Below are positions 11,812-58,738 of a DNA stretch of 64,000 nucleotides, in pieces. Under the pieces are notes generated by a model. It searched no databases, had not been told where the DNA came from, and was given only the letters and a program-made list of their open reading frames with translations. Position numbers and translations under genes: made by a program. Source of the DNA: Anaerolineae bacterium (GTDB lineage Bacteria > Chloroflexota > Anaerolineae > Epilineales > JAHCIE01); NCBI GenBank assembly GCA_046328535.1, contig JAXLWJ010000004.1, positions 87,800-151,799 of the forward strand. Reading direction: 5' to 3'. Numbering within the stretch: the first letter of the stretch is position 1; the number at the start of each line of letters is the position of its first letter.

Positions 11812-14800
11812 CTACGGTCGTCTTGCGCCCCTCGCGCCCTGGCCGTCTACCTCAACCGCTTGACCGTGTCCCAGCCCCACCGAATCACGCGCCACATACG
11901 GGAAGTAGAGGCTGTAGCTCTTCTGACCCGGCGTGGTGAGACTCTGCACGCGCAGCGGCGTCTTCAGCGCCTCGACGTTGCCGGCCTTGTCAATGGCGCG
12001 GCTGCGTAGCGCGACCGCGCCGCGCGGGGCGCTGACAGTCGCGGCCCACAGCGTGCCGGCGCCGCCGGTGGTGTCCGCCTTGGCGTCGTCAGGACACAGC
12101 GCGCCGGCCAGCAGGGCCGCCGCCGCCGCGCCGGTCGTGGCGTCCGTCCACGTCTGCCCACCGTCCACGCTGACCTGCGCCTGGGCGATGCCCCAGCCGT
12201 CGGTGGCGTAGCCCCAGGCGAGAATCTGGTCGGGGGCCAGCCCCTGGCACGCCTGGGGAACTGTCGCGCCGGGACGGGGGTAGACGATGTCCGACACGGG
12301 CGCGATGCTGTCCACGGTGACTGTGACCGGCGCGGACGGGGCGCTCACGTTGCCCGCCGCGTCGGTGGCCCGCGCGCGGATCGTGTGCTGGACGCCCTCC
12401 TCAGTGGGCAAGGGCCAGTTGTAGCGCCAGACACGCGGCGCGCCCGGCCGGGGCAGTAGCCCCACGGGCAGGTACGGTCCGGCGACGACCTGCCACGGCC
12501 CGCCGTCTATCGCCACCTCCACCCGCTCGATACCGCCGCGAACGCTCAGCGGCGCCGGATCGTAGGCGCTGCCGCTGATGGTGGCGATCCGGCCCTTGAG
12601 CGCCGCGAAGTCGTCGAGCGCCACGGTGGCCTGCGGCGGCGTATTGTCCACGGTGACGGTCGCCGACACCGGCGCGCTCACCTGGCCGAAGATGTCGTGG
12701 CCGCGCGCCTGGACGACGAACTCGCCGCTGGCCGGTACATCAATCCCCACCTGCCAGCCCAGGTTGGTGAAGATGCCGCCGACCTGGGAGGGTGTCACCA
12801 CCCACGGCCCGTCGTTCACCCGGACTTCGACGAAGCCGAGGCCGGTCTGGTCACTCGCCGTGCCGGTCACCGTTTGCCGCCCGCTACGCATCGTCGCGCC
12901 GACGGGCAGGGCAATGGCAACGCGCGGCGGCTGGTTGTCCACCGCGCGCGTGGCGCTGGATTGGGCCAGGCTGACATCGCCGCTCGCTGTCGCGCTCTTC
13001 ACCGCGGCCGTGACCGTGACCGCCTTGATGCCGGCGACGTTGGCGCCGAGGCCCGCCGTGACGGTGATCGGTGTCTGGGGGCCGGGGGCGAGGTTGCCCA
13101 ATGGAATGAGCCAGCGGCTCGCGGGCGCCTGGGGGGGCAGGCCGTGGATGGACTGGAGGGTTGCGCCGTCGCTGGCGGTGATCTCCAGCGTCAGGTCGGT
13201 CACTGGCACGCGGTCCACGTTGGTCAGACTGAGGCTCCACGGCGCGGCGCTGTTTGGCCCAAGGATGCGGCTCGACCCGCGAGGATTCTGGACACTCAGC
13301 GTCACGTGGCGGCCCTGCGGCTGGCCCGCGTTCGGCGCCGTCGTCGGCGTGATGCTCGTCCAGTGGTAGGCGCTGGTCCACGGGCCGAGCACCGATTGGG
13401 CCGTCGGGAAGACGCTGGCGACGCGGCCGCCGGCGTCGTTGAAGGCCAGCATCCGCACGTCCACGGCCGGGAGCGCGACGCCGAGGTCGCGCCACGGCAG
13501 GGCGATCTCGGTGTCACCCTCCGCGCCCGTTCGCGCCGCGCCGAAGTCGTGCTGCTCCCAGGCGCGGCCGGTCCAGTGGTACACGGCGTTGCCCGAGCCG
13601 CGCAGGGCGACGGCAAAGTCGGCGTTGAACGGTAGGGTCTGGGCCTGGGGGGCGCTCGCCCACAGTTGCGTTGTGCCGCCCGCCCTGGTGTCCAGGTAAA
13701 TGTAGCCCACGCCGTTGACGCCCCACGCCGCGCCGCGCCAGCCGATATACAGGTTGGTCGCGTCGAAGCTGGCCCACAGACCCTGGGACTGCGTCGGACG
13801 CGGGTCCACGTCGAGGCGCTCCGACGCGAGCTTCCACTCGCCGCGCGCCACGTCCATAAAACCGTTGACCTGGATGGACGACTGCCACGCGCCGTCGGCG
13901 TCCTTGGCCGCGCCGCCACCGCTGGCGCCGACGAGCCACGGGCCGAAGTGGCGCACCGTGGTGTTGCCGACCCTGTCCCTGGCGGCCAGGTGGACGTACC
14001 ACGTCCCCGCGCTCGTCAGCTGCGCGGTGTAGCTGGCGCCCGTCACGGCGTCGCCCGTCGTCGGGTTGGTGTCGCTCGTCTGGTCCACTACGGCGATGAC
14101 GGACACCTGCCCACTACCGTCGGTCAGCGGCGGCCACGTCAGGCCCACCGAGGCGGGCGCTGTCAGGTGAGCGCCGGGGCTGGGCTGGAGCTGGGCCTGG
14201 AAGGGCGTCGGCCCCAGGTTATCGGCGACGAAGACGACCGGCTGCACGGTCGCGTTCCCCGCGCGGTCCGTGGCTCGGATGCGGGCCGGGAAGGACGCGG
14301 AATCCGCGCCGCTCGGGACCGTGTAAGCCCACGTCCACGTGTTAGCGGTAAGCGTCGCCGCCGTCCACGTCTTCCCGCCGTCCGCGCTGCCCTCGACCAG
14401 GACCACGCCACTGGTCGCGTCGCCCGTCGTACCCGCGAGGGTGAGCGCGCTCGTGATCACGCCCGTCGGTGGGACGATGGTCACGGTCGGCGCGGCGCTG
14501 TCCTTGATGAGCGTGAGAACCGTGTCACCCGGCGCGCTGCTGCCGGCGGTGCGGCTGGCGCGGAGCGTTATGCTGTGGGAGCCATCGGCGCTGAGCGTGA
14601 TTGGCGCGCTCCAGCGGGTCGCCTGAGCCGTCGGGTTGGCGAGCGTCGCCTTGCCCTGACTGACGCCGTCAACCAGCACCTCGACCTGTCCCTGCCCGTC
14701 GGTGGCGGCGAAGTGAACCGCGCCCGCCAGCGTCAGCGTACCCGACACGACCGCCGCGCCCGGCGTGGGCGACAGCAGGGCCGCCTCGTTGCGCGTCGTG

Positions 14801-17800
14801 GCGATAGTGACCGACGACGGGGCGCTCTGGCCGACGTTGCCCGCGCCGTCCACCGCGACCGCCTGCACGGAATGCGTCCCGTCGGCCAGCGGCACGGCGG
14901 CGTTGTACTGCGGAGCGCCCAGGGCGCGCGTCGCCGTCACGACCTGCCCGTCCACCAGGAAGTAGACGCGGGCCACGTTCCACTGGCTCGCGCTGCCGAC
15001 GGGGACGACGTCGCTGACGCTGGCCTGGAGCGGCAGCACGGGGGCGCTCGATTGCAGCCCCGTCGTGGGAGTAATCAGCCCCGTCGTGGGCGGCGTGCCG
15101 TCGCCGATGAAGCTGGCGCGGAACGTCGCCGTGCCGCTGATAGTGTTGCCGCTGGCGTCGGCCGGCCGCGTGTACAGGCGATACAGGCCGTCGCCCTGGA
15201 AGCCGTTGTAGGGCAGGCTCCAGTACGAGCCGGCCTGGCCGGCCGACGCCAGTGTCGCCGGCGTCCACGTCGTCGGCAGGGTGCTCGACGGCGGTTGGCT
15301 CGGATCGCCCACCTTCGTGACGCCGACCTGCACCGACGCCACGCCCGCCGCGCCGGCGGCGCACGTCGCCCCCTGCTTGCCGAACAGCAGCGTGACCGGC
15401 GTCGCCAGCAGCTCCTTGTAGCCGAGGTCCGCCTGGCCGCCGCCGCCGAGCGGCACGGGCTGGAAGATCGCGGCCGGGATGCGGTTCACGGCCGGCGACG
15501 TCAATTGCAGCGAGTAGTCGGGCGGGCCGTTCGGGTCGGGGTTGTTGAACTGCGGGTCCACGCTGACCAGGTCCGTCGGGTCCGGGGTGAAGCCGGACGT
15601 GTTGGACGAGCCGTTCTGGTAGAACAGGTTGTAGCTGTCGAACACCTGCGCGCCGCCGCCCGCCGCCACACCCGAGCCGTTGTCGGCGAAGATGTTGAAG
15701 CGCGTCTGGAGCCAGGTGTTCTGGCCCGCCACAGTCAGGGCCGCGCCCGTGTTGTTGGCGATGGTGTTGAAGGCGAACACGCCGCTGGACGCGCCGTCGA
15801 AGCCCGCCGCCAGGCCGTTGTTGGCCTGGAAAACGTTGTGAGTCACGGTGATGGCGTTCGACGCGCCCGTCACCACCAGGCCACCCGCCCCACTGCCGCT
15901 GCCCGCGTTCTGGACGGTGAAGCCGGTGACTTCGACGTTGGTCACGCCGTTGAGGCTGAGCGCCGCGCCGCTGCCGCCCGCGTCAATGATCGTCTGGTCC
16001 GCGCCGCTGCCGACGAGCCGGACGCCGCTGCGCAGCGTGACGTTCTCCTGGTAGGGCTGCGTCGGGTCGGCGTTGGCGGCCACGCCCACGGTCCAGACGC
16101 CCGGAATCGGCGGCACGTGAGCGATGCCGTCGCCAATCGTGTTGAAAGCGTCCACCTGCCACTCCAGGCCGTCGTTGAGGCACTGGGCGCAGTAGCTCTG
16201 GGAGACGTAGACCGCGGCCTGGGCCGACTGGGCATAGCCGATGTCCACGCGCAGCCCGGCGCCGGGCGGCGACGGGTCGCCCGGGTCGCCCGCGTCCACC
16301 AGGGGCGAGTCGGCCTGGGGCCGGTAGTCTTGCTGGCTCGGCGCGACGAAGCGGGGGTCGGCGAAGACCTCGCCTGGGCCTGGGCTGTTCTGGACGACAC
16401 CGTCTATCATCAGATCCTGGGGCTGCCCCGGCGGCCCGTTGCGCCAGAAGCCGTTGAACGTATGCAAGGCGGTCGTCGCCGCCGACTGGTAGCTCAGGGC
16501 GGCGCCGTTGTTGAAGGCGAACACGGTGTTGCGGACGTCAATATTGCCGTTGTTCGTGGCGGCGATACCGTTGTCGTTGGCGACGATGGTGGTGTTAACG
16601 AGCAGCGCCTTTGCGCCGCCGTTCGCGCCGTCAACGCCGACCGCCGTCTTGGTGTTGCGGACGATGCTGCGGGTGACGCTGATCGCGCCGCCCGCGTCAA
16701 TCTTGACGCCGTCCACGCGGCTGTCGCCCGTCAGGCTGATCAGGGCCAGGCTGGCCGCGCGCACGCCCTCGGCCCCGACGACGGCGCCCGAAGCGTTTTG
16801 CGGCGGCGCAATGACGGTGAGGGCCGCGCCACTGCCGAAGACTCGCACGCCGTTGACCAGGTAGACGCTCTGGCGGTACAGGCCCGGGTTGACGAGGACT
16901 CGCTGCGCGCCGCTGGCGATGGCCGACTGCACGTCGGCGAAAGCGGCCACGTTCCAGGTGTGGCCGCTGTTGGCGCACTTCTCGCAGTAGCCGGGGTCAA
17001 CGTAGACCGTACCGCGATACTGATAGTAGCCCAGGTCCGCGCCCCCGTTGGCCTTGCCGCGCGCCGCGGAGGCGGCGAGCAGGCGGAAGACGCCCTGGGG
17101 CGCGCTGTAGAAGGCGGCCTGGACGAGGGTCATCGCCGTCGAGGCGACGCCGGGCGGCGCCGACAGCCAATCCCCCGCCGCGCCGTTGGCGCTGGCGTAG
17201 CCGTTGTGGTTGATGTCGGCCACCGTGCCGACGCCGTTGTCCTCCCAGACGCGGGGGAGGGGGGCGGCGTTGGGCAGCGCCGCGAACAGGTTGTTGCGGA
17301 TGAAGATGCCCTGGGCGACGGCGGAGGTATGCTTCACCCCGACGACGCTGGAACTGTTGCTGACGAACGTGTTGTGGTTGACGTCCACGCTGGACGTGCG
17401 GCTGTCCACACCAATGCTGCCCGGCCGGTCGAGGCTGAACACCACCTGCCGGATGGTGATGATCTGCGCGTTCAGGTCCGTCGCGCCGGGGGTCCCGCCA
17501 AAGGCGATTTGGACGCCGGTCTGGGCGTCGCGGATGGTCAGGCCCTGGATCGTCACACCGAGGATGCCCGGCGCGCTCGGCGTCTGGTCGCTCGGCGGGA
17601 ACACCTGGACGCCAACGCCACCGTTGGCGTCAATGAACACGGCGTCGGGGTTCACGCCCTGGATGGTCACGTAGTCCTTGCCGCCGTGGACGACGGCCGG
17701 TGCGTAGGCGCCGGGGCCGACGAGGATGGTGTCGCCGGAGGCCGCCGCGTCGAGCGCCGCCTGGATGGTGGCGAAGGCCGTTGTCCCCCAGGCGTGGCCG

Positions 17801-20800
17801 TCGTTGCCGCACGTCGCGCAGTAGTCGTCGTCCACGAAGCGGGTGACGGGCGCCGCCGTCGGCGCGAGGGCCTTGAGGGTAGGGGCGGCGCTGCGGGTCG
17901 TGCGGCCCCCTTCGCTCCACCCGCCGCTCTCGCTCGTCGGCAGCTTGCCCAGGGGAACCGGCGCCGCCGCCGGGCCGAGGTCAAGCTCGCGGCGCATGGC
18001 CCGCTTCGTCTCGCGCGTCTCGGCCGTCTTCGCGGCCGTCTGCGCGCCCAGAGGAACAATGAGCAGGTCCGACGAGCGGTCGCAGTTCACGTCCGCGCCA
18101 GCGGCGAAGGGCGCCGAGGCCGCCGCGCCGACGTTCGAGAGCTGCGCCTGGACCGGCTGGTTGGTCGCCAGGTCGGCGCGACCCAGCACGAGGTAGGCGC
18201 GGCCGCTCAGCGTGCCGAGCAGCAGGTCGTTCTTGCCGTCGTTGTCCACGTCGCCCACGCCGGCGATGAGGCCGTTGGGCGCGGGGGTGTAGCCGCTGAA
18301 CGTCACGTCGGGCGCTAAGGCGGGCTTCCAGCCGCTCGCGCGGCCGTAGGCGACGTGGGGTGTCGCGCCGTCGTTGTAGGCGAAGTCGGGCAGGCCGTCG
18401 CCGTTGACGTCGCCCAGTGGGACGACCTGGCTGCCGACGCCCGCCGGGCCACTGAAGCTGCCACTGGCGGCGGTCTTGAGGCTCGCCGGCGCGGCGACGC
18501 GCTTCGCCGCGTAGGCCGGGCCGCCGAGGAAGACGTACACGGCGGGGCCGCCGCCCGCGCTGTTGTTCGGGTCGGCGATGACGAAGTCGGCGTACTGGTC
18601 GTTATTCAGGTCGCCGACGCCCACGGCGGCCGCGCCCGCGCCGTCGGTGGCGAAAGCGCCGCCCAGGATGGGGCGCGTCCCGGTCAGGCCGTCCAGGGCG
18701 AAGCTCTGCGCCTGGCCGAGCGGCCCGGTGGCCGGGTTGCTGCCGAGGACGAGATACACCTCGCCCTTGCCGCCGGGCAGGTCGGTGACGCCGATGAGGA
18801 TGTCGTCGAAGCCGTCGCCGTTGACGTCGCCGGCGGCGGCCAGCCAGCGCCCCACCTGGCCGCTGTTGACGGTGAATATCTTGCCCCGCGTTTTCTCCGC
18901 CGCGCTGACCAGGCGCGTCGGGTCCACCTGGCCCATCGCGCCGACGCGCCCGAAGACGAGATAGACCTGGTTGTTGAGCGGGTCGCCGACGAGGAAGTCG
19001 CTCAGGCCGTCGCCGTTGACGTCGCCCGCCGGGGCCACATACTGCCCCAGGCCCGCGCCGGTCGTGCCGACAAGACTGCTCGGCGCGTCGGCCAGGGCCT
19101 GGGCGTCGGGCTTGACGGCCCAGCCGCCCGCCTTGCCGTACAGGATGGACACGCGGCCCGCGTTGGCCCGGCCGTCTACCGCGCTCGCCGGCGTCCCGAC
19201 GGCGAAGTCGGCGCGGCCGTCGCCGTCCACGTCGCCTAGCCAGGTGACGGTCTTGGTGATGTCCTCGGTCGGGCCGTTTGGCATCAGCCAGACGGTGGCT
19301 TTCTGGATGGGGTCAATGGACGCCGAGGCGACGCCACCCGCCAGCGGCTGCGGCCGCGCTGGCAGCGGGACATTGCCCGTGTCGTCGGCGTGGCCCTCGA
19401 AGGTGAACGGCGCGCTCGTCGAGACCTGGTCCACGGCGTTGGACCAGATGTCGGTCGGCGGCAGGTTATCCACCAGCACCGTGATCCGCTTCGCCGCCCC
19501 GATGTTGCCCACGGCATCCACGGCGCGCACGGCCAGGGTGTGGCTGCCGTACATGCTGGCGTCGAACTGCCAGTTATACTTCCAGGTCGCGGTTTGAGGG
19601 CGCGTCGTGGGGAACTCGCCCACGTTGCGCCACGGGCGGCGGTCAATGCTGAGCTGGACCACCGAGACGCCGGACACCTGCGGCGCGCCCGACGCCAGGT
19701 CGCTCGCGCTGCCCTCGATGGTGAAGGTGTTGAAGCGGACGTCGCTGAGCGCCTGGCCGTCCTGGACATTGGTGAAGGCGGCGGTCGGCGCGGTATTGTC
19801 CACGACCACCTGCGTCGCGGCGGCCGGCGTCTCGACGTTGCCCACGTAGTCGGTGGCGCGGGTCTGGATGCCGTAGGCCCCGTCGGCGGGCAGCGGCCAG
19901 GTGTACGTCCAGGTCTCGACGCCGCCGGCCGTCTGCCAGCCGCTGTCGTAGGCCTGGCCCTGGCCGTTGATGTAGCCCGTACCTGTGACGCGCAGCTCCA
20001 TCTTCACCGGCCAGCTCGTGGGGTCGGTGGCTGTGCCGCCAATCACAAACGACTTGCCCTTGATCGCCTGGCTTGCTTCGGGCGCGGCGACCGTGGACGA
20101 CGGCTGGTCGGCGTCAATCAGCACCTGCTGCGTGGCGGTGATGACCTTCTGCGCCCGGGCGATGGTGTCCGAGTAGGGGACGGTCGCCAGGAGGGTGGCG
20201 CGGGCCGAGGCGGTCAGGCCGCTCTGCGCGCCGCCCTTGATGGTGCTGGTCATGGCCTCGGCCGTCAGCAGCGGTCCCTGGCTGAAGTTCCACGTCAGGC
20301 GGCCCGCGCCCGCGCCCGGCGTCGGCGGCGTGTAGCCGGTCGAGCCGGTCTGCCCGCTGACGGCGAGCGCGCCCAGGGACGCTGCGTCGTAGCCGAGGGT
20401 CATGCTCCCGTTCAGCGGCGCGACGGTGGTGTTGCGGAGGTTAAGCTCCACCTGGAGCGGGTCGCCCGGCTTGAGGACGCTGTAGATCGAGCCGTTGTGG
20501 ACGACCGACGGCGTGACGTTGAAGACCAGGTTGGGCGCGGTGTTGGGCGACCAGGGGCTGGCGCCGGCCTGCTTCTCCTGGGCGTCGGTCAGGCCGTCGC
20601 CGTCCTCGTCGGCTTTGTTCGGGTCCGAGCAGACGTGGTAGACGCCGCCGTTGTCCAGCCGCACATCCCAGCCGCCCGCCAGTGTCCCGTCCGCCTGGAG
20701 GTGGCACACTTCCTGGCCGTCAGGCAGGCCGTCGCCGTCCGTGTCGGCGTTCAGCGGGTCCGTGCCAAGCTCGATCTCCTGGCGGTCGGTGAGGCCGTCG

Positions 20801-23800
20801 CCGTCCGTGTCCGCCCTGGTCGGATCGGTGCGGGATACGTAGACCTCGTCGCCGTCGGAGAGGCCGTCGCCGTCGGTGTCCCACTTCGTCGGGTCCGTCC
20901 CATACGTCGCCTCCTGTTTCTGGGTCAGCAGGTCGGCGTCCTTGTCCACGTTCCAGCCGTCGTAGGTGGTATTACCGACGGGGTCCTTGGCGTCCCAGTT
21001 CCACAGGCTGTCCACGTCGCCGGGCAGCACGTCGAAGGCGATGCTCTGGCGCGCGTTGGCAAAGTCCGTCGGGTCGTCGCTTTGCTGCGGGCCGCGGCTG
21101 TAGTTGGTGTCGGCGCTGCAATTGTAGAAGCCGAAGCCGACGCACTTCTGATAGGCCAGATTCGCCTCGACCTGCTGAAGGAACGGGATGAGGAGGTTGC
21201 GGCCCGGCGCCGTCACCTGGAAGCTCAGCTTCATGGTGTTGTGGCAGAGCTTCTTGCCGTTCGCGTCCACCGTGGCGTCGTCGTCGCAGTTCGTGCCGGG
21301 GACGGTGTTCGCGCCGTTGGTCACCGTCGTATTCTGGACGGTGAAGCCGGACGTGTAGGCCGGCGCCTGGCCGTTGTTGAAGACCGGATCGGTGTCAATC
21401 TCGGCGAACGCCCAACTATTCTTGACGTCGCCGAGGTTGCCCGCGCGGCCGTTGAACCAGGTGTTGCCCGCTTTGAACTGCCTGGTGTTGGTGTTGGCCG
21501 TCAGCGTGGTCGTCGTCGCCGTGGTCATGGCGATCTGCGAGCCGCTGACGATGCCGGTGTTCGAGATGGCGCTGGACTGGCTCACGGTCATGTTGGGCGA
21601 GCCGGCGCTCACGTCCGGCTGGTTGACGAATAAGTCCACGAACAGGACGACCTTGGCGAGCCACTCGGTGAGCTTGCTGTAGGCGTCGAGCGGGTTCCAG
21701 TCGCCGGTGATCGCGCCGACGATGATGTACAGGATCAGGAATAACAGCAGGCCGATGAGCGCGCCGGGTCCCGTACTGAAGATGACGCCGATGATGGTGT
21801 CAATGATGAACTGGAACACCGTCAAGAGGGTCGTGGCGATGGCCTGGGCGAGGAGCGAATCGCGCGCCACACCGGACAGCCCACTGGCGGCCGTCGCGTA
21901 CATGGACCAGGTCGTGATGATGAGAATCGCGCTCACGGCGACGCCGATGACGAAGCCCGAGGTCTTCCAGTACTTAGACTCAGCCTCCACCCGCTCTGTG
22001 ATGCCGGTGATGCCCTCCTCCGATTCGGCGCTTTCCTTGTTGACAATCCCAATGGCGACCAGCCGGCGCTCGTCGGCCCCCGACCAGCCCCCAAAGGCCT
22101 CAGACCAGGCTTCCTGGACGCCATACTTCAAGGCGCGGAGGCGAGTCGGGATGGGCGGCCCTGTGCGCGCGAAAATCGCTTCCCCCGCTTCGTCCTCCCC
22201 CGCCACCTCGAGCGTCGGGAGGCGCCAGACCGAGTAGACGCGCACGACTGTGCTAAAGAACTTGAACACAGGCGCGCCGATGAGGATGGCGACGCGAGAG
22301 TAGAACTGCGATGAGCCGATGGCGCTGTTCCAGGCGCGGAACGCCTCCAGCGTCCCCTTGTTCTGGAGATTGGTGACGAGCGAGTCGAGCTGGTACGCCA
22401 GGCGCACGTACTGGGGCATCGTCGTCGCCGCGGCGGCCGGGCGGTTGAAGTCGAGGAAGGCGGCCGGGTCGGCGTTCGCGGCAGCGTAGGGCAGGAGCTG
22501 CCCATCCATGCTCATCACCCGCGACCGGCCGGTGTAGTAGGAACTGAAGAGGAGTAGCGCCAGGCCGCGATACTGGTCCTGGTCGTTGGCGGGGTAGCGC
22601 CGCGCCATCTCGGCCTGCACCTGGCTCAGGTTCAGCGTCTGCCAGCGCGGCTGCCCGGACACGGCGTCCGTGGCGCACGTGTACTGGCCGAGCTGCACGC
22701 GGCGCATCACCAATGAGGGGGCGTTGCCGAGGGGGAAGCTGAAGCCGATGCCGGCCGCGCTGATGACGCTCGGATCGCCGTTCTTGATGGTCACCAGGGG
22801 GCTGCTCGCCTCGAGGTTGCTGCTCGTCTCCTGGTAGGCCAGCGCGAGGGTCGGCGTCAGGGCGGCGGTAGTGGTCGCGGCGCAGACCCCGTAGTTGTCG
22901 TTGAGCAGCTTGGCCGTCGTGGTCATGTTCGTCGTCGCCAGCGCCTCGTCGCGGCTGCCATAGGTGGCGTAGCTCAGGGCGATCTGCGACGGGTCGAGGC
23001 CCCACGTCGGCGTGTAAGGCGCGCTCGCGCCGCTGGCTTTGAAATTCTGGACGATGGTCGGCAGGTCCGGGTTCTGGTAGCCCAGGAAGCTCGGCGCCAG
23101 GCCCGACATGACGTTCATCATCTGCCGCGCTTCATCGTTGACATTGGGCGTCGGCAGCTCGGGCGCTTTCGGCGCGCCAAACTGGGCGACCCCCACGTTG
23201 CTGGTGGCGGACACGGCGAGGCCGGTGACGCGGAACAGGTCCTCGTAGTACGTGGCGACGATGGACTGCTCGGTGGCGACGCTGCAATTGCTGCTGTCCT
23301 GCGCGCCGTTGGGGTCCTTGCAGTTCGCCCAGCTATCCAGGCTCGCCTGAGTCATCCACTGGATGCGGCCGTTCGTCAGATCGAGGCCCTGGCCCACCTC
23401 GGCCGAGGTGAAGGCCAGCCGCGCGCCAAACGCGCTCACCCCGCCGCCGCTGCCGACAGCGGTGAGCGGGACGAGCAGCGTGAAGCTCGCCTTGTCGGTG
23501 GCCGTGATGGCGGCGATGCCGTACTGCGCGCCGAGGCTTGGCTTGACCGGGCTGCTGATTTCCAGCACGGGAATCAGCAGCACGTCCTGAACCGACTTGT
23601 CTAGGTCCTTGATCTGACCCTGGTTGTCGTCCGGCCAGTCCATGTAGCTGAGACCGTAGCGCAGGTGGGCCGTGTTCTTCGGCTGCACCTGAGCATCAAT
23701 ATAGACCACGCTGTTGGTTATCGGCCCGCCGATCTCGATGTCCAGCGCGGGACGATACGGCGGAATGATGAATTTGGTGGGATCGCTGGGGTTGGGGATG

Positions 23801-25416
23801 CCATAGGGCGTCAGGTCGTCGCTGTTGGGGACGCCGTCACCGTCAATGTCGGCGTCCCACAGGTCGGGGATGCCGTCGCCGTCGGTGTCCTGGCACACCA
23901 GCTTGCCGCTGCTGTCCACGGAACACGCGCCGCCGTCGCTGATGCCGTCGTGGTTGGTGTCGGCCTCCAGCGGGTCGAGCAGCCACTTGTGGCCCTGGGC
24001 GTCGGTGTAGCCGCCGACTTCGAGGGTGTCCGTAATCGTGTCGCCGTCCGTGTCCGCCTGCTTGAAGTCCGTGCCGAGGCACCACTCCGTCGCATTCGAC
24101 AGCCCGTCGTTGTCATCGTCCCCGTTGGGGTCAATGCCCTGGTCGGCGTACAGCACGCGGCAGTCGCGCAGGTCGGCCGTGGGCGTCACGCCGGCCGCGG
24201 CGGGTCGCTGCGGCGTAGTGGGCTGCTGGCCCCAGATCTCGCGGGCGATCTGCTGTGCGAGCTTATCCGGGCCCTGCTCCGGCGCGGCGGTTGCGCCGAT
24301 CGTGGACAGGGCCGTGTCGAGGGTGGCGGCGCTGGCGGCGCGCGTCTTGAACCGCGCGAAGATGTCCGCGTTGAGCAGCGGCGTGCTCAGCATGGAGACG
24401 ATGGTGACGCCCACGATGGCCGTGTACAGGCGGCGGAAGCGGCGCGGCCGCACCAGCGCCAGGACGAACAGGGCGAAGAACAGCGCGACGGCCAGCCCCA
24501 GGCCGATGGACAGGGCTTCGGGGTTGAGGACGGCCTGGAGGTGGGCCAACGCGGCGGTTGACGCAGCGCCGGGCGCGGGCGCGGCCGGGGGCTGCGCCAC
24601 CGTCAGGACGCCGTTCGGGCCGGGCGTGGGGGCGATGATGGGCGGCACGGCGTCGCCAAAACGCGAGAAGTCCACACTCATGCGCGCCTGAGTCGCGGGC
24701 TGGCCCGCGACGGCGGGGAAGCTCAGGTCAATGGTCTGCCGCCGCGCGCGGCCGTCGCCGTCCACCCACAGCTCGCCCTTGCCGGTCATGCCCTCGTAGC
24801 GTGGGCTGCGCGCGAGCTGGACGCCCTGGGGCAGCTGCCCGTCGAGCTGGCGCTGCATGCGCTGGCGCAGGGCCTCGGCGTAGAGCGGGCCGTCAATGTC
24901 GAACGTGTAGCGCTCCAGGTTGCCGGCGGCCGTTTTGACGGCATCGCCCTTCGCCACGTTCGTCACCGCCGCCAGGTAGCCGAGGTAGTCGCCACTCGGC
25001 GCGCCGCCCAGGGACGATTCATCCATGCGCTGCCAGCGGTCGGCCAGGCCGATGTAGGTCTGGCCGGCGACCACGCGCAGCTCGACGCTCGGCGCCTGGG
25101 GCCGGCTGGCGAACACCAGCCGCGTGTCGGGCTGGCCGCCGGAGCCGGCATAGACGACGTCGCCTTCGACACGGAGGGTACTGTCGCCCGCCCCGTTGCT
25201 GACGGCGACCGACGCGCCTGGGGTCAGCGCGGTCTGCTGAACGTCGGCGGTCAGGTGGAAGCTGCCGGCGGCGCGTGTGCGCGCCAGGGCATCGGCGACG
25301 GCCGACGCCGGGGTCGCGTGGCCGGCGGAGAGCAGGCGGTAGCCGCCGAGCATGCCAAAGACAGGCAGGAGGAGCAGGGCGACCAGCAGGACGAGGCGGC
25401 GGCTGACAACTGACAT
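11812..25416 (-). CDS. Giant modular surface protein, paralog 1 (4534 aa, intact)
   Basis: Single uninterrupted ORF. N-terminal signal/anchor and a conserved ~270-aa N-domain. TM hairpin (LGLAVALFFALFVLALV-RPRRFRR-IVGVTIVSML). TSP3 repeats (DTDGDGIPD, DTDGDGLSDGDE). Internal conserved hydrophobic block with a GDWNPL motif. 7 FG-GAP repeats (GDVNGDGLSDFLVGDP...). Three beta-helix modules, each opening with a D/YxxYCxxCxNxGxxWxxxAFxxIQxA motif. Ig-like domains and a C-terminal CBM9/DOMON-like module. RBS GGAG 8 nt upstream of ATG 25414-25416. Confidence 0.9.
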   Translation of the reverse strand: MSVVSRRLVLLVALLLLPVFGMLGGYRLLSAGHATPASAVADALARTRAAGSFHLTADVQQTALTPGASVAVSNGAGDSTLRVEGDVVYAGSGGQPDTRLVFASRPQAPSVELRVVAGQTYIGLADRWQRMDESSLGGAPSGDYLGYLAAVTNVAKGDAVKTAAGNLERYTFDIDGPLYAEALRQRMQRQLDGQLPQGVQLARSPRYEGMTGKGELWVDGDGRARRQTIDLSFPAVAGQPATQARMSVDFSRFGDAVPPIIAPTPGPNGVLTVAQPPAAPAPGAASTAALAHLQAVLNPEALSIGLGLAVALFFALFVLALVRPRRFRRLYTAIVGVTIVSMLSTPLLNADIFARFKTRAASAATLDTALSTIGATAAPEQGPDKLAQQIAREIWGQQPTTPQRPAAAGVTPTADLRDCRVLYADQGIDPNGDDDNDGLSNATEWCLGTDFKQADTDGDTITDTLEVGGYTDAQGHKWLLDPLEADTNHDGISDGGACSVDSSGKLVCQDTDGDGIPDLWDADIDGDGVPNSDDLTPYGIPNPSDPTKFIIPPYRPALDIEIGGPITNSVVYIDAQVQPKNTAHLRYGLSYMDWPDDNQGQIKDLDKSVQDVLLIPVLEISSPVKPSLGAQYGIAAITATDKASFTLLVPLTAVGSGGGVSAFGARLAFTSAEVGQGLDLTNGRIQWMTQASLDSWANCKDPNGAQDSSNCSVATEQSIVATYYEDLFRVTGLAVSATSNVGVAQFGAPKAPELPTPNVNDEARQMMNVMSGLAPSFLGYQNPDLPTIVQNFKASGASAPYTPTWGLDPSQIALSYATYGSRDEALATTNMTTTAKLLNDNYGVCAATTTAALTPTLALAYQETSSNLEASSPLVTIKNGDPSVISAAGIGFSFPLGNAPSLVMRRVQLGQYTCATDAVSGQPRWQTLNLSQVQAEMARRYPANDQDQYRGLALLLFSSYYTGRSRVMSMDGQLLPYAAANADPAAFLDFNRPAAAATTMPQYVRLAYQLDSLVTNLQNKGTLEAFRAWNSAIGSSQFYSRVAILIGAPVFKFFSTVVRVYSVWRLPTLEVAGEDEAGEAIFARTGPPIPTRLRALKYGVQEAWSEAFGGWSGADERRLVAIGIVNKESAESEEGITGITERVEAESKYWKTSGFVIGVAVSAILIITTWSMYATAASGLSGVARDSLLAQAIATTLLTVFQFIIDTIIGVIFSTGPGALIGLLLFLILYIIVGAITGDWNPLDAYSKLTEWLAKVVLFVDLFVNQPDVSAGSPNMTVSQSSAISNTGIVSGSQIAMTTATTTTLTANTNTRQFKAGNTWFNGRAGNLGDVKNSWAFAEIDTDPVFNNGQAPAYTSGFTVQNTTVTNGANTVPGTNCDDDATVDANGKKLCHNTMKLSFQVTAPGRNLLIPFLQQVEANLAYQKCVGFGFYNCSADTNYSRGPQQSDDPTDFANARQSIAFDVLPGDVDSLWNWDAKDPVGNTTYDGWNVDKDADLLTQKQEATYGTDPTKWDTDGDGLSDGDEVYVSRTDPTRADTDGDGLTDRQEIELGTDPLNADTDGDGLPDGQEVCHLQADGTLAGGWDVRLDNGGVYHVCSDPNKADEDGDGLTDAQEKQAGASPWSPNTAPNLVFNVTPSVVHNGSIYSVLKPGDPLQVELNLRNTTVAPLNGSMTLGYDAASLGALAVSGQTGSTGYTPPTPGAGAGRLTWNFSQGPLLTAEAMTSTIKGGAQSGLTASARATLLATVPYSDTIARAQKVITATQQVLIDADQPSSTVAAPEASQAIKGKSFVIGGTATDPTSWPVKMELRVTGTGYINGQGQAYDSGWQTAGGVETWTYTWPLPADGAYGIQTRATDYVGNVETPAAATQVVVDNTAPTAAFTNVQDGQALSDVRFNTFTIEGSASDLASGAPQVSGVSVVQLSIDRRPWRNVGEFPTTRPQTATWKYNWQFDASMYGSHTLAVRAVDAVGNIGAAKRITVLVDNLPPTDIWSNAVDQVSTSAPFTFEGHADDTGNVPLPARPQPLAGGVASASIDPIQKATVWLMPNGPTEDITKTVTWLGDVDGDGRADFAVGTPASAVDGRANAGRVSILYGKAGGWAVKPDAQALADAPSSLVGTTGAGLGQYVAPAGDVNGDGLSDFLVGDPLNNQVYLVFGRVGAMGQVDPTRLVSAAEKTRGKIFTVNSGQVGRWLAAAGDVNGDGFDDILIGVTDLPGGKGEVYLVLGSNPATGPLGQAQSFALDGLTGTRPILGGAFATDGAGAAAVGVGDLNNDQYADFVIADPNNSAGGGPAVYVFLGGPAYAAKRVAAPASLKTAASGSFSGPAGVGSQVVPLGDVNGDGLPDFAYNDGATPHVAYGRASGWKPALAPDVTFSGYTPAPNGLIAGVGDVDNDGKNDLLLGTLSGRAYLVLGRADLATNQPVQAQLSNVGAAASAPFAAGADVNCDRSSDLLIVPLGAQTAAKTAETRETKRAMRRELDLGPAAAPVPLGKLPTSESGGWSEGGRTTRSAAPTLKALAPTAAPVTRFVDDDYCATCGNDGHAWGTTAFATIQAALDAAASGDTILVGPGAYAPAVVHGGKDYVTIQGVNPDAVFIDANGGVGVQVFPPSDQTPSAPGILGVTIQGLTIRDAQTGVQIAFGGTPGATDLNAQIITIRQVVFSLDRPGSIGVDSRTSSVDVNHNTFVSNSSSVVGVKHTSAVAQGIFIRNNLFAALPNAAPLPRVWEDNGVGTVADINHNGYASANGAAGDWLSAPPGVASTAMTLVQAAFYSAPQGVFRLLAASAARGKANGGADLGYYQYRGTVYVDPGYCEKCANSGHTWNVAAFADVQSAIASGAQRVLVNPGLYRQSVYLVNGVRVFGSGAALTVIAPPQNASGAVVGAEGVRAASLALISLTGDSRVDGVKIDAGGAISVTRSIVRNTKTAVGVDGANGGAKALLVNTTIVANDNGIAATNNGNIDVRNTVFAFNNGAALSYQSAATTALHTFNGFWRNGPPGQPQDLMIDGVVQNSPGPGEVFADPRFVAPSQQDYRPQADSPLVDAGDPGDPSPPGAGLRVDIGYAQSAQAAVYVSQSYCAQCLNDGLEWQVDAFNTIGDGIAHVPPIPGVWTVGVAANADPTQPYQENVTLRSGVRLVGSGADQTIIDAGGSGAALSLNGVTNVEVTGFTVQNAGSGSGAGGLVVTGASNAITVTHNVFQANNGLAAGFDGASSGVFAFNTIANNTGAALTVAGQNTWLQTRFNIFADNGSGVAAGGGAQVFDSYNLFYQNGSSNTSGFTPDPTDLVSVDPQFNNPDPNGPPDYSLQLTSPAVNRIPAAIFQPVPLGGGGQADLGYKELLATPVTLLFGKQGATCAAGAAGVASVQVGVTKVGDPSQPPSSTLPTTWTPATLASAGQAGSYWSLPYNGFQGDGLYRLYTRPADASGNTISGTATFRASFIGDGTPPTTGLITPTTGLQSSAPVLPLQASVSDVVPVGSASQWNVARVYFLVDGQVVTATRALGAPQYNAAVPLADGTHSVQAVAVDGAGNVGQSAPSSVTIATTRNEAALLSPTPGAAVVSGTLTLAGAVHFAATDGQGQVEVLVDGVSQGKATLANPTAQATRWSAPITLSADGSHSITLRASRTAGSSAPGDTVLTLIKDSAAPTVTIVPPTGVITSALTLAGTTGDATSGVVLVEGSADGGKTWTAATLTANTWTWAYTVPSGADSASFPARIRATDRAGNATVQPVVFVADNLGPTPFQAQLQPSPGAHLTAPASVGLTWPPLTDGSGQVSVIAVVDQTSDTNPTTGDAVTGASYTAQLTSAGTWYVHLAARDRVGNTTVRHFGPWLVGASGGGAAKDADGAWQSSIQVNGFMDVARGEWKLASERLDVDPRPTQSQGLWASFDATNLYIGWRGAAWGVNGVGYIYLDTRAGGTTQLWASAPQAQTLPFNADFAVALRGSGNAVYHWTGRAWEQHDFGAARTGAEGDTEIALPWRDLGVALPAVDVRMLAFNDAGGRVASVFPTAQSVLGPWTSAYHWTSITPTTAPNAGQPQGRHVTLSVQNPRGSSRILGPNSAAPWSLSLTNVDRVPVTDLTLEITASDGATLQSIHGLPPQAPASRWLIPLGNLAPGPQTPITVTAGLGANVAGIKAVTVTAAVKSATASGDVSLAQSSATRAVDNQPPRVAIALPVGATMRSGRQTVTGTASDQTGLGFVEVRVNDGPWVVTPSQVGGIFTNLGWQVGIDVPASGEFVVQARGHDIFGQVSAPVSATVTVDNTPPQATVALDDFAALKGRIATISGSAYDPAPLSVRGGIERVEVAIDGGPWQVVAGPYLPVGLLPRPGAPRVWRYNWPLPTEEGVQHTIRARATDAAGNVSAPSAPVTVTVDSIAPVSDIVYPRPGATVPQACQGLAPDQILAWGYATDGWGIAQAQVSVDGGQTWTDATTGAAAAALLAGALCPDDAKADTTGGAGTLWAATVSAPRGAVALRSRAIDKAGNVEALKTPLRVQSLTTPGQKSYSLYFPYVARDSVGLGHGQAVEVDGQGARGARRP

Positions 25417-25468: not shown

Positions 25469-25525
25469 CAGTATAACCGTCACGCGTGACAAGCCCGTTT
25501 CAACGGCGCGCGCCACGCGTGACAG
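25469..25525 (-). promoter_or_regulatory. Conserved ~57-bp upstream motif (copy-1 instance), putative promoter/operator shared with the stand-alone module gene
   Basis: About 80% identical to 58580-58637. Contains TGTCACGC direct repeats about 33 bp apart and a TATACT/TATGCT -10-like box downstream in gene orientation. Lies 50-110 bp upstream of the copy-1 start. Confidence 0.45.
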
Positions 25526-25651
25526 ATGCGGACTTTATCTGGTCATCCCCTCCAATAAGAAAGGTTGGTGGTTCATAACGTCTTCCCGCCACTCGTCAGT
25601 CCTCAACTTCCGTGCCTCACGTAATACGTAGGCATATTATGTTGCAATTTG

Positions 25652-25680
25652 TTGCAAATTTTGCATATTTCGTGTAGAAT
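25652..25680 (+). promoter_or_regulatory. Sigma70-type promoter of the AbiL-like operon (TTGCAA-17 bp-TAGAAT); SD GGAGG at 25698-25702
   Basis: Read directly from sequence. AT-rich 190-bp block with a gttgcaa/ttgcaa/ttgcat triple repeat. Canonical hexamers and spacing are unusual for this genome, where other genes lack clear SD or sigma70 boxes. Confidence 0.5.
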
Positions 25681-25709
25681 ATGCCTTAGATTTATGCGGA
25701 GGTATAGCC

Positions 25710-41350: not shown

Positions 41351-41390
41351 CACGAAAGGCGCGAAAGGGACACGAAAAACGCGAAAAAAG
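41351..41390 (-). promoter_or_regulatory. Four direct repeats TTTCG(C/T)G at about 10-bp periodicity, 57-96 bp upstream of the copy-2 start
   Basis: Plus strand reads cacgaaaggc gcgaaaggga cacgaaaaac gcgaaaaaag. In gene orientation this is TTTCGCG-TTTCGTG-TTTCGCG-TTTCGTG, with offsets of 9-11 bp. Confidence 0.35.
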
Positions 41391-41422: not shown

Positions 41423-41450
41423 GTAGAGACGCGCTATAGCGCGTCTCTAC
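41423..41450. repeat. Perfect 28-bp palindrome gtagagacgcgc-tata-gcgcgtctctac (12-bp stem), between the IS element and copy 2
   Basis: Read directly. No T-run follows. Could be a terminator-like hairpin or a protein-binding site. Confidence 0.45.
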
Positions 41451-41500: not shown

Positions 41501-41559
41501 GCCGACTGAAGTCGGCGCTACACATCCCCCGTCTCCTGTAGCGCCGACTTCCAGTCGGC
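41501..41559. repeat. Double-hairpin element B (gccgactgaagtcggcgctaca ... tgtagcgccgacttccagtcggc)
   Basis: Same architecture as element A: two CGACT/AGTCG hairpins within an inverted-repeat frame, with compensatory stem changes. It abuts the IS630 left end. Confidence 0.5.
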
Positions 41560-56084: not shown

Positions 56085-58238
56085 CTACTGCGGACCGCGA
56101 TGCGGATCGGCGCGCTGCGCGGCAAAGGGCAGGTACAGGCGATAGGGAGGCGCGGGCGGCGCGCCACCGTGCTGCACCCGCAGCGGCGGCTTCAGGCTCT
56201 CCGCGTTGCCCGCCCTGTCTACGGCGCGGCTCCGCAGCGCCAGCTCGCCGGCGGGGGCCGGCAGGCTCGCGGCCCACAGCGTCGCTTCCCCTTTCTCAGC
56301 GATCGCGCCGGCGCATAGAACACGGGCCAGGAAGGCTGCCGCCTCGGGGCCAGTCAGCGCCGCCGTCCACGTCTGCCCGCCGTCCACGCTTGCCTGGACG
56401 CCCGCCAGCGACCAGCCGTCCCGCGCCGTCCCCCACATCAGGATGTGGCCCGCCGGCAGCGTCAGGCACGCCTCCGGAACGACGCCGCCCGCGCTGGGAT
56501 AGGCGATGGTAGAGGTGGGGCGGACGGTATCCACAGTGAACGCGGTCCACGCGCTGGCGGGGCCGACGTTGCCGGCGGCGTCCGTGGCGCGCGTCCGCAC
56601 GCGGTGCGGCACGCCCTCCTCGGTCGGGACGCGCCACGCATAGCGCCACAGCCGCGCGCCCAACGGCGGTAGCGGCGGGATCGCTGGCAGGAAGAGGTAT
56701 GGTGGCGGGGCAAGCTGCCAGGGGCCATCGTCCACCTGCGCCTCGACGCGCGCGATGCTGCCGAGCGCGGGGAAGGGATCCACTACTGTCCCCGACACGA
56801 TAAGCGTCGAGTCCTTGACGACATTGCGGCTGAGGCTGATACTAGCAATGGGTGGGACGTTATCCACGAGCACGGCCGCTGACACCGGCGCGCTCGTCTG
56901 GCCGAAGATGTCATGCCCACGCGCCTGCACGACGAAGCTGCCGCCCGACGGCGCATCAATGCCGATGCTCCACCCAAGGCGCGTGAAGATGCCGCCGACG
57001 CTGGTTGGCGGCTGCCGCCACGGCCCGTCCCCCACCCGCACCTCGACGAAGCCGATGCCGGAGCCGTCGCTCGCCGTCCCTGACACGGTCGCCGGGCCGC
57101 TGCGCATCGTCGCGCCGGCCGGCAGGGCGATCTTCACGACCGGCGGCGCATTGTCCACCGTCAGACTCGCCTGCGACTGCGCGAGGGTCACAGGGCCGCT
57201 GGGCGCGTTCGCCTTCACCTGCGCCGTGACCGTCACCGCGTCTATGGCGGCGACAGAGGCGGCGACGCGCGCGGTGACGGTGATGGGCGAGCGGGCGCCG
57301 GGCGCGAGATCGCCAAGCGGGATCGTCCAGCGTCCTGCCGCCGCCGGCCCCGCCGCGCCCTGGATCGCCTCGAGGGTCAGGCCGGGGCTGGCGCCGACGT
57401 CCAGCGTCACGTCTGTCACCGGGACGCGGTCCAGGTTGCGTATGGTCAGCAGCCACAGCGACGCGCCGCCAGGGCCGACGACGCGGGCCGCGCCGCGCGG
57501 GGTGGCGACGTTGAGGCTGACGTGATTGCCCGTGGGCTGGCCGGCGTTGGGGACCGTCGTCGGCGCGAGGTTCGTCCAGTGGTAGGCGCTCGCCCACGGG
57601 CCGAGCACCGACTGGTTGGTGGGGAAGACGCTGATGATGCGGCCGTGGTCGTCGTCGAAGGCCAGCAGGCGCAGGTCAACCGCGCCAACGCTCGCTCCCA
57701 GGTCGGCCCACGGCAGCCGGAGTTCGGTGTCGCCGTTCGGCCCGTTCACACCGTCTACCGCGCCACCATCGCGCCACGCCGCGCCATCCCAGCGCATCGC
57801 GCGGGCGCGGGGGCCAGTCAGGTAGACAAGGTAGCCGGCGGGGAAGGGCAGCGACTTGCCCTTGACCGCCGCCGCGCCGTCGGGGCCGCTCCAGGGCGTC
57901 GTCGTGCCGCCGGGGCTTACGCCGATATAGATGTAGCCGGCGCCGTTGACACCCCAGTTCGCGCCGCGCCAGCCCAGGTAGAGGTTGGCGGCGTCGAAGC
58001 TGGCCCACAGACTCTGGGAGGTGGTCGGGCGGGGGTCTACGTCGAGCCGCTCGCTCGCCAACCGCCACTCGCCGCGCTCGACATCCAGCTTGCCGTCTAC
58101 GATGATGGACGACTGCCAGCCGTCGGCCGTCGTCCAGGCGGGGCGGGCCGCCTGCGCACCCTGGGCGCGGCCCAACGACAGCAGCGCGGTGAGCAGCAGG
58201 GCGACAACCAGGCGCAGGCGAACGGTTCGACTCGTCAT
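56085..58238 (-). CDS. Secreted stand-alone homolog of the giant-protein C-terminal module (CBM9/DOMON-like plus Ig-like domains), 717 aa with its own signal peptide
   Basis: True start is ATG at 58236-58238 (MTSRTVRLRLVVALLLTALLSLGRAQGAQA, an AxA-type signal), with AGGGAG 4 nt upstream. The ORF-track 78-aa extension to 58472 is Arg-rich noise. The mature N-terminus AARPAWTTADGWQSSIIVDG aligns with the exact junction ...GGGAAKDADGAWQSSIQVNG in copy 1. The C-terminus aligns with the copy-1 C-terminus. Confidence 0.8.
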   Translation of the reverse strand: MTSRTVRLRLVVALLLTALLSLGRAQGAQAARPAWTTADGWQSSIIVDGKLDVERGEWRLASERLDVDPRPTTSQSLWASFDAANLYLGWRGANWGVNGAGYIYIGVSPGGTTTPWSGPDGAAAVKGKSLPFPAGYLVYLTGPRARAMRWDGAAWRDGGAVDGVNGPNGDTELRLPWADLGASVGAVDLRLLAFDDDHGRIISVFPTNQSVLGPWASAYHWTNLAPTTVPNAGQPTGNHVSLNVATPRGAARVVGPGGASLWLLTIRNLDRVPVTDVTLDVGASPGLTLEAIQGAAGPAAAGRWTIPLGDLAPGARSPITVTARVAASVAAIDAVTVTAQVKANAPSGPVTLAQSQASLTVDNAPPVVKIALPAGATMRSGPATVSGTASDGSGIGFVEVRVGDGPWRQPPTSVGGIFTRLGWSIGIDAPSGGSFVVQARGHDIFGQTSAPVSAAVLVDNVPPIASISLSRNVVKDSTLIVSGTVVDPFPALGSIARVEAQVDDGPWQLAPPPYLFLPAIPPLPPLGARLWRYAWRVPTEEGVPHRVRTRATDAAGNVGPASAWTAFTVDTVRPTSTIAYPSAGGVVPEACLTLPAGHILMWGTARDGWSLAGVQASVDGGQTWTAALTGPEAAAFLARVLCAGAIAEKGEATLWAASLPAPAGELALRSRAVDRAGNAESLKPPLRVQHGGAPPAPPYRLYLPFAAQRADPHRGPQ

Positions 58239-58321: not shown

Positions 58322-58534
58322 TTACTCCGTCCCGGAGGCGGCATCGAGGGGGACGCCGAGCCGCTCCGCGAGGTAGGCAAACATGGCCTCGACGCTGGCA
58401 AAGCGCAGGGTATCCCCCGTTTGGACGCAGTGAGCCGAGGCGCGCCACGGCCCCCCGGCGCCGTCCTGCCACAGCCTCACGAGAAATGAGTGGTAGCGTG
58501 CGGGTGACTGAAGATGGTCAGACGGTGCAGGCAT
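58322..58534 (-). CDS. Small hypothetical protein (~70 aa) in the leader between the conserved promoter motif and the stand-alone module gene
   Basis: ORF encoding ...SPARYHSFLVRLWQDGAGGPWRASAHCVQTGDTLRFASVEAMFAYLAERLG..., with non-random, protein-like composition. Alternative start is ATG 58589-58591. It may instead be an untranslated leader. Confidence 0.3.
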   Translation of the reverse strand: MPAPSDHLQSPARYHSFLVRLWQDGAGGPWRASAHCVQTGDTLRFASVEAMFAYLAERLGVPLDAASGTE

Positions 58535-58579: not shown

Positions 58580-58637
58580 CCTAGCATACACACTGCGCGT
58601 GACAACTCCGTTTCAAGGCGGCGCATCAAGCGTGACA
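58580..58637 (-). promoter_or_regulatory. Conserved ~57-bp upstream motif (stand-alone/leader instance), paired with 25469-25525
   Basis: In gene orientation it aligns with the copy-1 instance: CTGTCACGC-N-TTGAAACGG-N-TTGTCACGCG followed by TATGCT (versus TATACT in copy 1). It lies immediately upstream of the small ORF and about 340 bp upstream of the stand-alone gene start. Confidence 0.45.
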
Positions 58638-58738
58638 GCGCCCCCGGCGGCGTTCAATAGCGAGCCGTCTTTGACCCAGCCGACGCCGTATCTATAATTT
58701 GCACACCATTCGCCCAAGGAATTCTCGGCGGTCTATGT

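Follow-up and report, generated by a model that had tools for sequence, protein, structure and literature searches.

Phased 11-bp direct repeats upstream of giant secreted protein genes in an Anaerolineae bacterium: a conserved promoter element probably served by a neighbouring SARP-type regulator

How are genes for giant secreted proteins switched on in Chloroflexota, and could one regulator serve more than one of them? This question is raised by a 64,000-nucleotide stretch of DNA of an Anaerolineae bacterium (assembly GCA_046328535.1, contig JAXLWJ010000004.1, positions 87,800 to 151,799; the whole stretch is called the window below), which carries giant genes designated copies 1, 2 and 3 and, beside the transcription unit of copy 3, a gene for a regulator of the SARP family. 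The initial annotation, made from the sequence alone, had proposed that copy 1 and the copy-3 unit share a promoter/operator motif. Here we describe this motif as a well-supported conserved element which, judged from its sequence, appears to be an activator-dependent promoter with phased repeats of the SARP/OmpR type. All coordinates are positions in the window, and the element is read in gene orientation (minus strand).

Both sites (25470-25525 and 58583-58638, minus strand) have the same arrangement: CTGTCACGnnn, 11 variable bp, TTGAAACGnnn, TTGTCACGnnn, 6 bp, and TATACT or TATGCT. The element consists of four 11-bp units, A-B-C-D, of which B is not conserved, whereas each of the other three has eight conserved bases followed by three free ones; the -10-like hexamer (TATRCT) begins 6 bp past the end of D. 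The parts are as follows.

25515..25525, minus strand: copy-1 promoter, distal unit A (CTGTCACGCGT), at about -62 to -52
25504..25514, minus strand: copy-1 promoter, unit B, an unconserved 11-bp spacer that holds A and C 22 bp apart
25493..25503, minus strand: copy-1 promoter, unit C, the variant repeat (TTGAAACGGGC), at about -40 to -30
25482..25492, minus strand: copy-1 promoter, proximal unit D (TTGTCACGCGT), at about -29 to -19
25470..25475, minus strand: copy-1 -10 hexamer TATACT; predicted transcription start near 25463
58628..58638, minus strand: copy-3-unit promoter, unit A (CTGTCACGCTT)
58606..58616, minus strand: copy-3-unit promoter, unit C (TTGAAACGGAG)
58595..58605, minus strand: copy-3-unit promoter, unit D (TTGTCACGCGC)
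58583..58588, minus strand: copy-3-unit -10 hexamer TATGCT; predicted transcription start near 58576

The intervals had originally been placed correctly to within one base (the second was shifted by one and given a length of 58 nt), and the identity of ~80% assigned to them applies to the repeat core (35/44 over the four 11-bp units, 80%) rather than to the 57-bp span (41/57, 72%); over the units and the -10 hexamer together it is 41/56. The -10-like box was found as described, 6 bp after the last unit. The octamer TGTCACGC, reported to recur about 33 bp apart, does so at exactly 33 bp at both sites. However, TTGAAACG, taken before for a separate element, precedes the proximal copy by 11 bp. 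The true repeat period is therefore 11 bp, and TTGAAACG counts as a variant form of the repeat, the third in the element. When both intergenic regions were Markov-shuffled 200 times, the best ungapped 57-mer reached 28.1 +/- 1.2 matches (maximum 32), compared with the 41 observed. Exactly two occurrences of the 21-mer TTGAAACGGNNTTGTCACGCG are found in the window, compared with none in 100 shuffles, and the octamer by itself is not enriched there (7 observed, 4.3 expected); the signal therefore is the arrangement and not the number of octamers.

No TTGACA-like -35 hexamer is present 16-18 bp from the -10 at either site (TTGAAA lies at 22 bp and TTGTCA at 11 bp), and a consensus scan for sigma-70-type promoters on the gene strand of both intergenic regions was negative. 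An Rfam scan of the whole window at the gathering threshold had no matches; the conserved element is located upstream of the predicted transcription start. The SARP gene, which diverges from the copy-3 unit, has the following promoter of its own.

58671..58698, plus strand: SARP-gene promoter TTGACC-16 bp-TATAAT, 11/12 to the consensus, facing away from the adjacent repeat promoter; predicted transcription start near 58705

As this promoter is nearly perfect, the organism appears to use canonical promoters, and those of the giant genes look activator-dependent by comparison. Both hexamers are conserved in the related loci L001, L146 and L150 (see below).

Nine distinct instances of the element from at least six Anaerolineae assemblies could be aligned among the matches listed in a genome-collection scan and in related loci. 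All nine have three YTGNNACG units on the strand of the transcription direction, always with the same spacing (C-D 11 bp, A-C 22 bp). The mean pairwise identity at positions 1-8 is 0.92 for A, 0.92 for C and 0.97 for D, and that of the -10 hexamer is 0.88, with TATNCT invariant. Outside the boxes the values are 0.29-0.32 (30-bp flanks), 0.44 (unit B) and 0.36 (6-bp gap), and positions 9-11 of the units reach 0.32-0.60. Positions 2-8 of unit A (TGTCACG) are invariant (9/9), the eighth base is G in 27/27 units, and unit C takes a variant form throughout (TTGAAACG, TTGCAACG or GTGAAACG). A dimer scan with a position weight matrix of the window and ~60 kb of related loci returned the known sites alone, at 26-29 bits (null maximum 18.9 bits, 0.3 hits per 64 kb).

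The downstream giant genes are paralogues, and their upstream regions consequently share ancestry; the similarity could thus be a relic of giant-gene duplication, or chance, without regulatory meaning. However, across the nine instances the identity of flanks and spacers has fallen to that of random sequence (0.29-0.44), with the boxes at 0.92-0.97, the diverged flanks exclude a recent-copy origin, and the shuffles never came near the observed match. Conservation confined to the boxes, as the alignment presents it, excludes both chance and a plain duplication relic, and we regard this explanation as extremely improbable. The proposal of a promoter/operator made of direct repeats is thus backed by all nine instances.

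Two other readings of the sequence were rejected: an ECF-sigma promoter (TGAAAC-N16-CGT), as no conserved CGT is suitably spaced and TATNCT shows no variation, and an inverted-repeat operator based on the CACGCGTG palindromes of copy 1, which are not conserved in the other instances. A literature search on the octamers returned primer matches only.

Orthologous loci are present in STL-CHL21 (L001), STL-CHL22 (L004), GCA_039810265.1 (L146) and an ENA assembly (L150); furthermore, the locus in the Logan assembly L149 is identical to the window. The order divergent SARP gene, motif, small open reading frame, 717-aa Ig-like protein, giant gene is kept in the window, L001, L004, L146 and L150, and the SARP proteins of L001 and L004 are 70-75% identical to that of the window. 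Within the intergenic region of these loci, strong conservation is restricted to the -10, the boxes of the three units and the two SARP-promoter hexamers. Weaker conservation extends to some of the leader and to a 'TGAAC' that lies about 20 bp upstream of unit A. Copy-1-type promoters can be found in STL-CHL21 (L053) and STL-CHL22 (L118) as well. In L118 the ribosome-binding site GAAGGAGAC, the same as in copy 1, precedes a homologous signal peptide, whereas in L053 the gene starts further downstream of the promoter. A further instance (L125) is located upstream of a giant-protein fragment, 45% identical. The motif was not found next to a more distant SARP (P0010, 49% identity) in an unrelated context (MFS transporter), nor in the homologous Caldilineae cluster L151.

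The regulator encoded back to back with the copy-3-unit promoter had already been recognised as a SARP, and the domain searches agree.

58958..62398, plus strand: AfsR-like large SARP, 1146 aa, candidate activator (OmpR-type DNA-binding domain, BTAD, NB-ARC and TPR)

It possesses the N-terminal OmpR-type winged helix followed by BTAD that characterizes the SARP family. Pfam profiles matched BTAD (5.3e-26), NB-ARC and TPR_12, with Trans_reg_C below the threshold (22.8 bits), and in a PDB search residues 9-258 matched the SARP domains of AfsR (8hvr, 5.6e-9) and EmbR (2fez, 3.6e-8). The DNA-contacting residues W74, R87, T88, R92 and R94 of AfsR align with W54, R67, T68, R72 and R74 of the window protein. 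Its score against the AfsR equivalog NCBIfam NF053617 (145.6 bits) is far below the cut-off (1430), and the protein therefore has an AfsR-like architecture without being an AfsR orthologue. A protein 100% identical to it is encoded in an Anaerolineae metagenome-assembled genome.

The association of motif and SARP gene was also seen in JGI metagenomes. A first, strict pattern had no matches there; the relaxed pattern TTGNNACG-N4-TGTCACG-N9-TATRCT matched 20 loci, 14 of them independent. The free NN is TC in 11 of these 14, giving a TTGTCACG direct repeat before TATACT. A SARP gene, detected with the SARP-domain profile, is located within 1 kb of the motif in three of the 14 (L130, L138, L129/L139); two of the three have a member of the small-protein family described below, and one motif precedes an FG-GAP giant secreted protein. 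The order in L130 is divergent large SARP, motif, small-ORF homologue, small SARP, second small-ORF homologue. In L138 the gene for the FG-GAP protein is preceded by the motif, together with a divergent SARP gene and a small-ORF homologue. At about 100 TGTCAC-repeat loci of other phyla, among the matches listed, no SARP genes were present.

The reading that fits these data best is a promoter core for the housekeeping sigma factor that depends on an activator, probably the adjacent AfsR-like SARP. We infer the transcription start positions, the binding by the neighbouring SARP and activation as the direction of regulation; the conserved divergent SARP gene and the independent co-occurrence in metagenomes suggest by association that a SARP binds and activates these repeats, and they make the OmpR/SARP-type activator of the initial annotation the best-fitting candidate. 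The promoter has a good -10 (TATRCT) and an unworkable -35, in whose stead two 11-bp units would be presented at about -40 to -19. Two copies of the SARP's OmpR-type DNA-binding domain would bind these proximal units side by side as a head-to-tail dimer, and through contacts with the RNA polymerase core and with region 4 of sigma this dimer would stand in for the missing -35. The distal unit, two helical turns upstream (-62 to -52), may offer an additional docking site on the same face. By analogy with AfsR, the NB-ARC/TPR part would restrain the SARP domain as long as neither ATP nor a signal is bound. In this way one regulator could jointly activate the copy-3 unit (small open reading frame, 717-aa gene and giant copy 3) and giant copy 1, 33 kb off.

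Three findings weigh against this assignment. The CTGTCAC heptad, the 11-bp phasing and the distance of 10 bp between the end of the heptad and the -10 are the exact layout of a Pho box, too. Of the 14 metagenome loci, eleven lack a SARP gene on the available contig (five of these contigs are shorter than 2.5 kb). Furthermore, the recognition helix (NLR[TQ]TLxRLR) is common to the whole Chloroflexota SARP clan with its thousands of paralogues, and it does not single out the neighbouring gene; comparison of motif-linked with other SARPs revealed no discriminating difference in this helix. With a helix so nearly identical across the clan, the repeats might be bound by a paralogous SARP or by another OmpR-family or winged-helix regulator encoded elsewhere, the neighbouring SARP having another target. 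A second large SARP is indeed encoded 7 kb away in L146, and copy 1, 33 kb from the SARP gene, requires action in trans anyway. However, the motif and this very SARP gene remain divergent neighbours in five orthologous loci, and the intergenic region has no alternative conserved non-coding operator block beyond the weak TGAAC and the leader parts, so that another binder seems quite unlikely.

The Pho-box layout deserves separate consideration. PHO boxes consist of two or more 11-nt direct repeats, with the core CTGTCAT in E. coli (PMC4415409), and the units of the window match this core, having CTGTCAC/TTGTCAC heptads at an 11-bp period. The motif could accordingly be bound by a regulator of the PhoB/PhoP type, either by itself or competing with the SARP (overlapping sites of AfsR and PhoP are known, including at afsS; PMC10936776), and phosphate limitation would then induce the giant operons. 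Our first collection scan (TGTCAC-N15-TTGWMAC-N5-TGTCAC, allowing TTGTCAC as the middle unit) returned many loci of other phyla, including long 11-bp arrays. Among its matches were genuine Pho boxes of Proteobacteria, Acidobacteriota, Omnitrophota, Bacteroidota and Verrucomicrobiota, lying upstream of pstS, pstC or porin genes: the same pattern precedes PstS/PstC genes in L005, L012, L022, L068 and L115, and a pstS/porin pair in L095. The layout of L068 is particularly similar (A, a degenerate B, TTGTAAC, D, then the -10), and PstC of L022 is preceded by a TTGTCACATTT x4 array.

However, phosphate genes are neither downstream of nor near the motif in the nine Anaerolineae instances and the 14 metagenome loci; in particular, no phosphate-related gene follows any of the 14 metagenome motifs, and no PstS, PstC or porin homologues were found in the window or the related loci by the same searches that detect them beside the TGTCAC repeats of other phyla. 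The eighth base, invariant here, is variable in verified Pho boxes. A SARP gene adjoins the motif in five orthologous and three independent metagenome loci and never adjoins verified Pho boxes, and the annotated open reading frames of the cluster include no response-regulator gene. No description of a Chloroflexota Pho box was found in the literature searched. A Pho box is therefore an unlikely identity for the element. Cross-talk with the phosphate response through the Pho-box-like core could nevertheless occur, as with AfsR and PhoP in Streptomyces.

The scan also revealed how widespread such repeats are. Pho boxes of four units (TTGTCAC heptads, 11-bp period) precede pstS/pstC in five phyla in the six loci named above, which suggests that the CTGTCAY code is widely conserved. 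Tandem TTGTCACnnnn arrays of 5 to >9 copies are present in L009, L059, L070, L093, L121, L051, L074, L079 and many Bacteroidales RUI194 contigs (Planctomycetota, Acidobacteriota, Verrucomicrobiota, Actinomycetota, Bacteroidota); the genes after them are mixed and encode sulfatase-like (by eye), oxidoreductase-like and transposase-like proteins.

To return to the SARP-dependent reading, which genes would be its targets? The motif indeed precedes both copy 1 and the copy-3 unit, as had been claimed. However, the first gene of the latter is not the 795-aa open reading frame but a 70-aa one, followed by a 717-aa gene.

58322..58534, minus strand: 70-aa open reading frame, first gene of the copy-3 unit ('YxxFLxRLW...WRAS...FASxEALFAYL' family)
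56085..58238, minus strand: 717-aa Ig-like (Big_7) secreted protein, 77% identical over 713 aa to its STL-CHL21 orthologue P0126
43421..56066, minus strand: giant protein copy 3, in two open reading frames in different frames (47829-56066 and 43421-49246) with a 1.4-kb overlap
11812..25416, minus strand: giant secreted protein copy 1, 4534 aa (Ig-like, TSP3, FG-GAP and beta-helix domains), following the copy-1 promoter

The true start of the 717-aa gene is the ATG at 58238 behind the ribosome-binding site GGATAGGGAG; the 795-aa reading frame, from the GTG at 58472, is over-extended. The copy-3 orthologues are single genes of 4314-4321 aa, and the split in the window thus reflects a frameshift, due either to a pseudogene state or to faulty assembly. 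The 70-aa open reading frame is conserved in L001, L004, L146, L149 and L150. Its family (pattern 'YHSFLVRLW..PWRAS....G....FASVEA(L/M)FAYL') has no Pfam or NCBIfam match and comprises 798 representatives at E <= 0.001; metagenomic homologues are encoded beside SARP genes in the two unrelated loci L130 (1221-1433 and 2568-2855) and L138 (2633-2893).

These co-occurrences point tentatively to a wider module of Chloroflexota-like bacteria, for which we see some chance, though it is more doubtful than the regulation proposed for the window itself. In this module, SARPs of the NLR/STAND type (SARP-NB-ARC-TPR) would recognise 11-bp-phased TTGTCACG repeats 6 bp before TATACT and would be coupled to the ~70-aa family, with giant surface proteins among the outputs. 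The ~70-aa family ('LRLW...WRAS...FAS.EALF') may be a functional analogue of AfsS. The small open reading frame is not known to be related to AfsS in sequence.

Copy 2 lacks the motif, as noted initially; the matrix scan of the window gave just the two known sites. Local alignment of the copy-2 upstream region with seven motif promoters gave no score above those of shuffles. A lone suggestive match, TCACGCCCCGCTGTTAT(GCC), resembles unit D plus the -10, and we do not claim it as a decayed site. A search with the copy-2 N-terminus retrieved three fragments only; of these, L125 carries the motif and L124 does not. The array of four TTTCG(C/T)G copies that had been described at 41351-41390 instead is real (starts at 41351, 41360, 41371 and 41380, minus strand; four copies within 40 bp in 0/200 shuffles, shuffle maximum 2). 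Its spacing, however, is 9/11/9, i.e., a 20-bp unit twice, and not a regular 10 bp. The array, for which Tandem Repeats Finder reports nothing, sits downstream of the sole -10-like candidate in the copy-2 upstream region. An IS630-like element (41598-42757) separates copies 2 and 3, at a distance of 304 bp upstream from the copy-2 start codon. Its ends are 39-bp inverted repeats, 95% complementary, and it encodes a DDE_3 transposase (open reading frame 41631-42440, minus strand). On these observations, the initial suggestion that copy 2 responds to another input than its paralogues finds no support.

Some further features of the locus should be mentioned. The copy-2 leader contains, besides the TTTCGYG array (41351-41386, minus strand), a perfect 14+14 palindrome (GTAGAGACGCGCTA/TAGCGCGTCTCTAC) and a hairpin with a 15-bp stem (41423-41450 and 41508-41551), and similar CGCGAAG-type repeats can be found upstream of a giant gene in Caldilineae L151 (12458-12704). 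The SARP leader (58705-58957, plus strand) is about 250 nt long in the window versus roughly 75 nt in L001, L004 and L146, owing to a GC-rich insertion of about 180 bp with short inverted repeats (GGAGGGCGCAGCCCTCC). STL-CHL22 (L004, 9880-9935) has a more compact SARP promoter: 16 bp separate its TATAAT from unit A, and GTGACA, the reverse complement of unit A, takes the -35 place 17 bp from this TATAAT. In L004 alone, a protein bound to unit A would occlude the SARP promoter, which makes autoregulation possible.

Immediately upstream of the copy-1 promoter (25560-27678, plus strand), an AT-rich stretch is followed by genes for an AAA_21 ATPase (25710-27029) and an RloB-like protein (27019-27678), a module type known from phage-defence/abortive-infection systems; it is inserted at a place that in relatives is taken by the end of a different giant gene. 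A glycosylation/sugar-modification block (96-10306, minus strand), which follows giant copy 1 directly on its downstream side, encodes a PMT-type mannosyltransferase, a glycosyltransferase, a DegT aminotransferase, PglD-like acetyltransferases, a B12/radical-SAM enzyme and a GHMP kinase. The block may modify the giant proteins.

What does this promoter add to our knowledge of SARPs? The family was called exclusive to actinobacteria in a 2024 review (PMC10972967), and the window provides a concrete candidate operator and target set for a SARP outside Actinobacteria: a known kind of promoter in a new phylum, with a new class of targets, namely giant surface proteins of an uncultured filamentous lineage that are linked to a glycosylation cluster, rather than antibiotic pathways. 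Chloroflexota possess thousands of such SARP regulators without known targets, and the TTGTCACG 11-bp code, the link to NB-ARC/TPR SARPs and the small-protein family could aid the annotation of regulons in Chloroflexota metagenomes.

In comparison with known systems, the element shares with the Pho box the CTGTCAC heptads in 11-bp direct repeats, the replacement of the -35 and the number of units, up to four per promoter. In contrast to the Pho box, it has a variant middle unit throughout (TTGMAACG or GTGAAACG), and it is linked to a SARP gene and not to phoBR/pst, with no phosphate gene near. The promoters of small SARPs (ActII-ORF4, DnrI, PimR type) have 2-3 direct repeats with 4-bp spacers, i.e., an 11-bp period, overlapping the -35, and these regulators are encoded inside their own cluster (PMC10972967), as in the window. 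However, the window regulator is a large NB-ARC/TPR SARP, its 8-bp core has another sequence, and the cluster is not a biosynthetic gene cluster.

The closest resemblance is to AfsR and the afs box. SARP promoters have direct repeats at distances of 11 or 22 bp, and the 3' one is found near the -10 (PMC10936776). The afs box comprises 22 bp with two 11-bp repeats at -40 to -19, the first eight bp of each being conserved and contacted and the last three not (PMC10936776). In afsS, the -35 at -38 to -33 is followed by a 20-bp spacer (PMC11301090), which places the -10 at -12 to -7, 6 bp after the afs box. As read from its sequence, the window motif reproduces each of these numbers: two 11-bp direct repeats at about -40 to -19, eight conserved and three free bases, and 6 bp before the -10. 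Its 3' repeat is near the -10, recognised here by its conservation, and the repeats replace a -35 that is unusable or mis-spaced in both systems (TTGAAA at 22 bp in the window; TTCAGC at 20 bp in afsS). The regulators have the same domain order, and the residues contacting bases and backbone are kept in the window SARP. Furthermore, both regulator genes adjoin the gene for a small protein that they activate or, in the window, would activate. The systems differ in the repeat (CGTTCA-type in afsS; YTGTCACG/TTGAAACG in the window), in the third unit that the window has 22 bp upstream, in the phylum (Chloroflexota) and in the putative targets, giant Ig/FG-GAP/TSP3 surface proteins instead of antibiotic pathways. 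As the geometry is identical to that of the structurally solved AfsR-afsS complex, the mechanism and the mutational predictions made for AfsR should be directly transferable to the promoters of these giant proteins.

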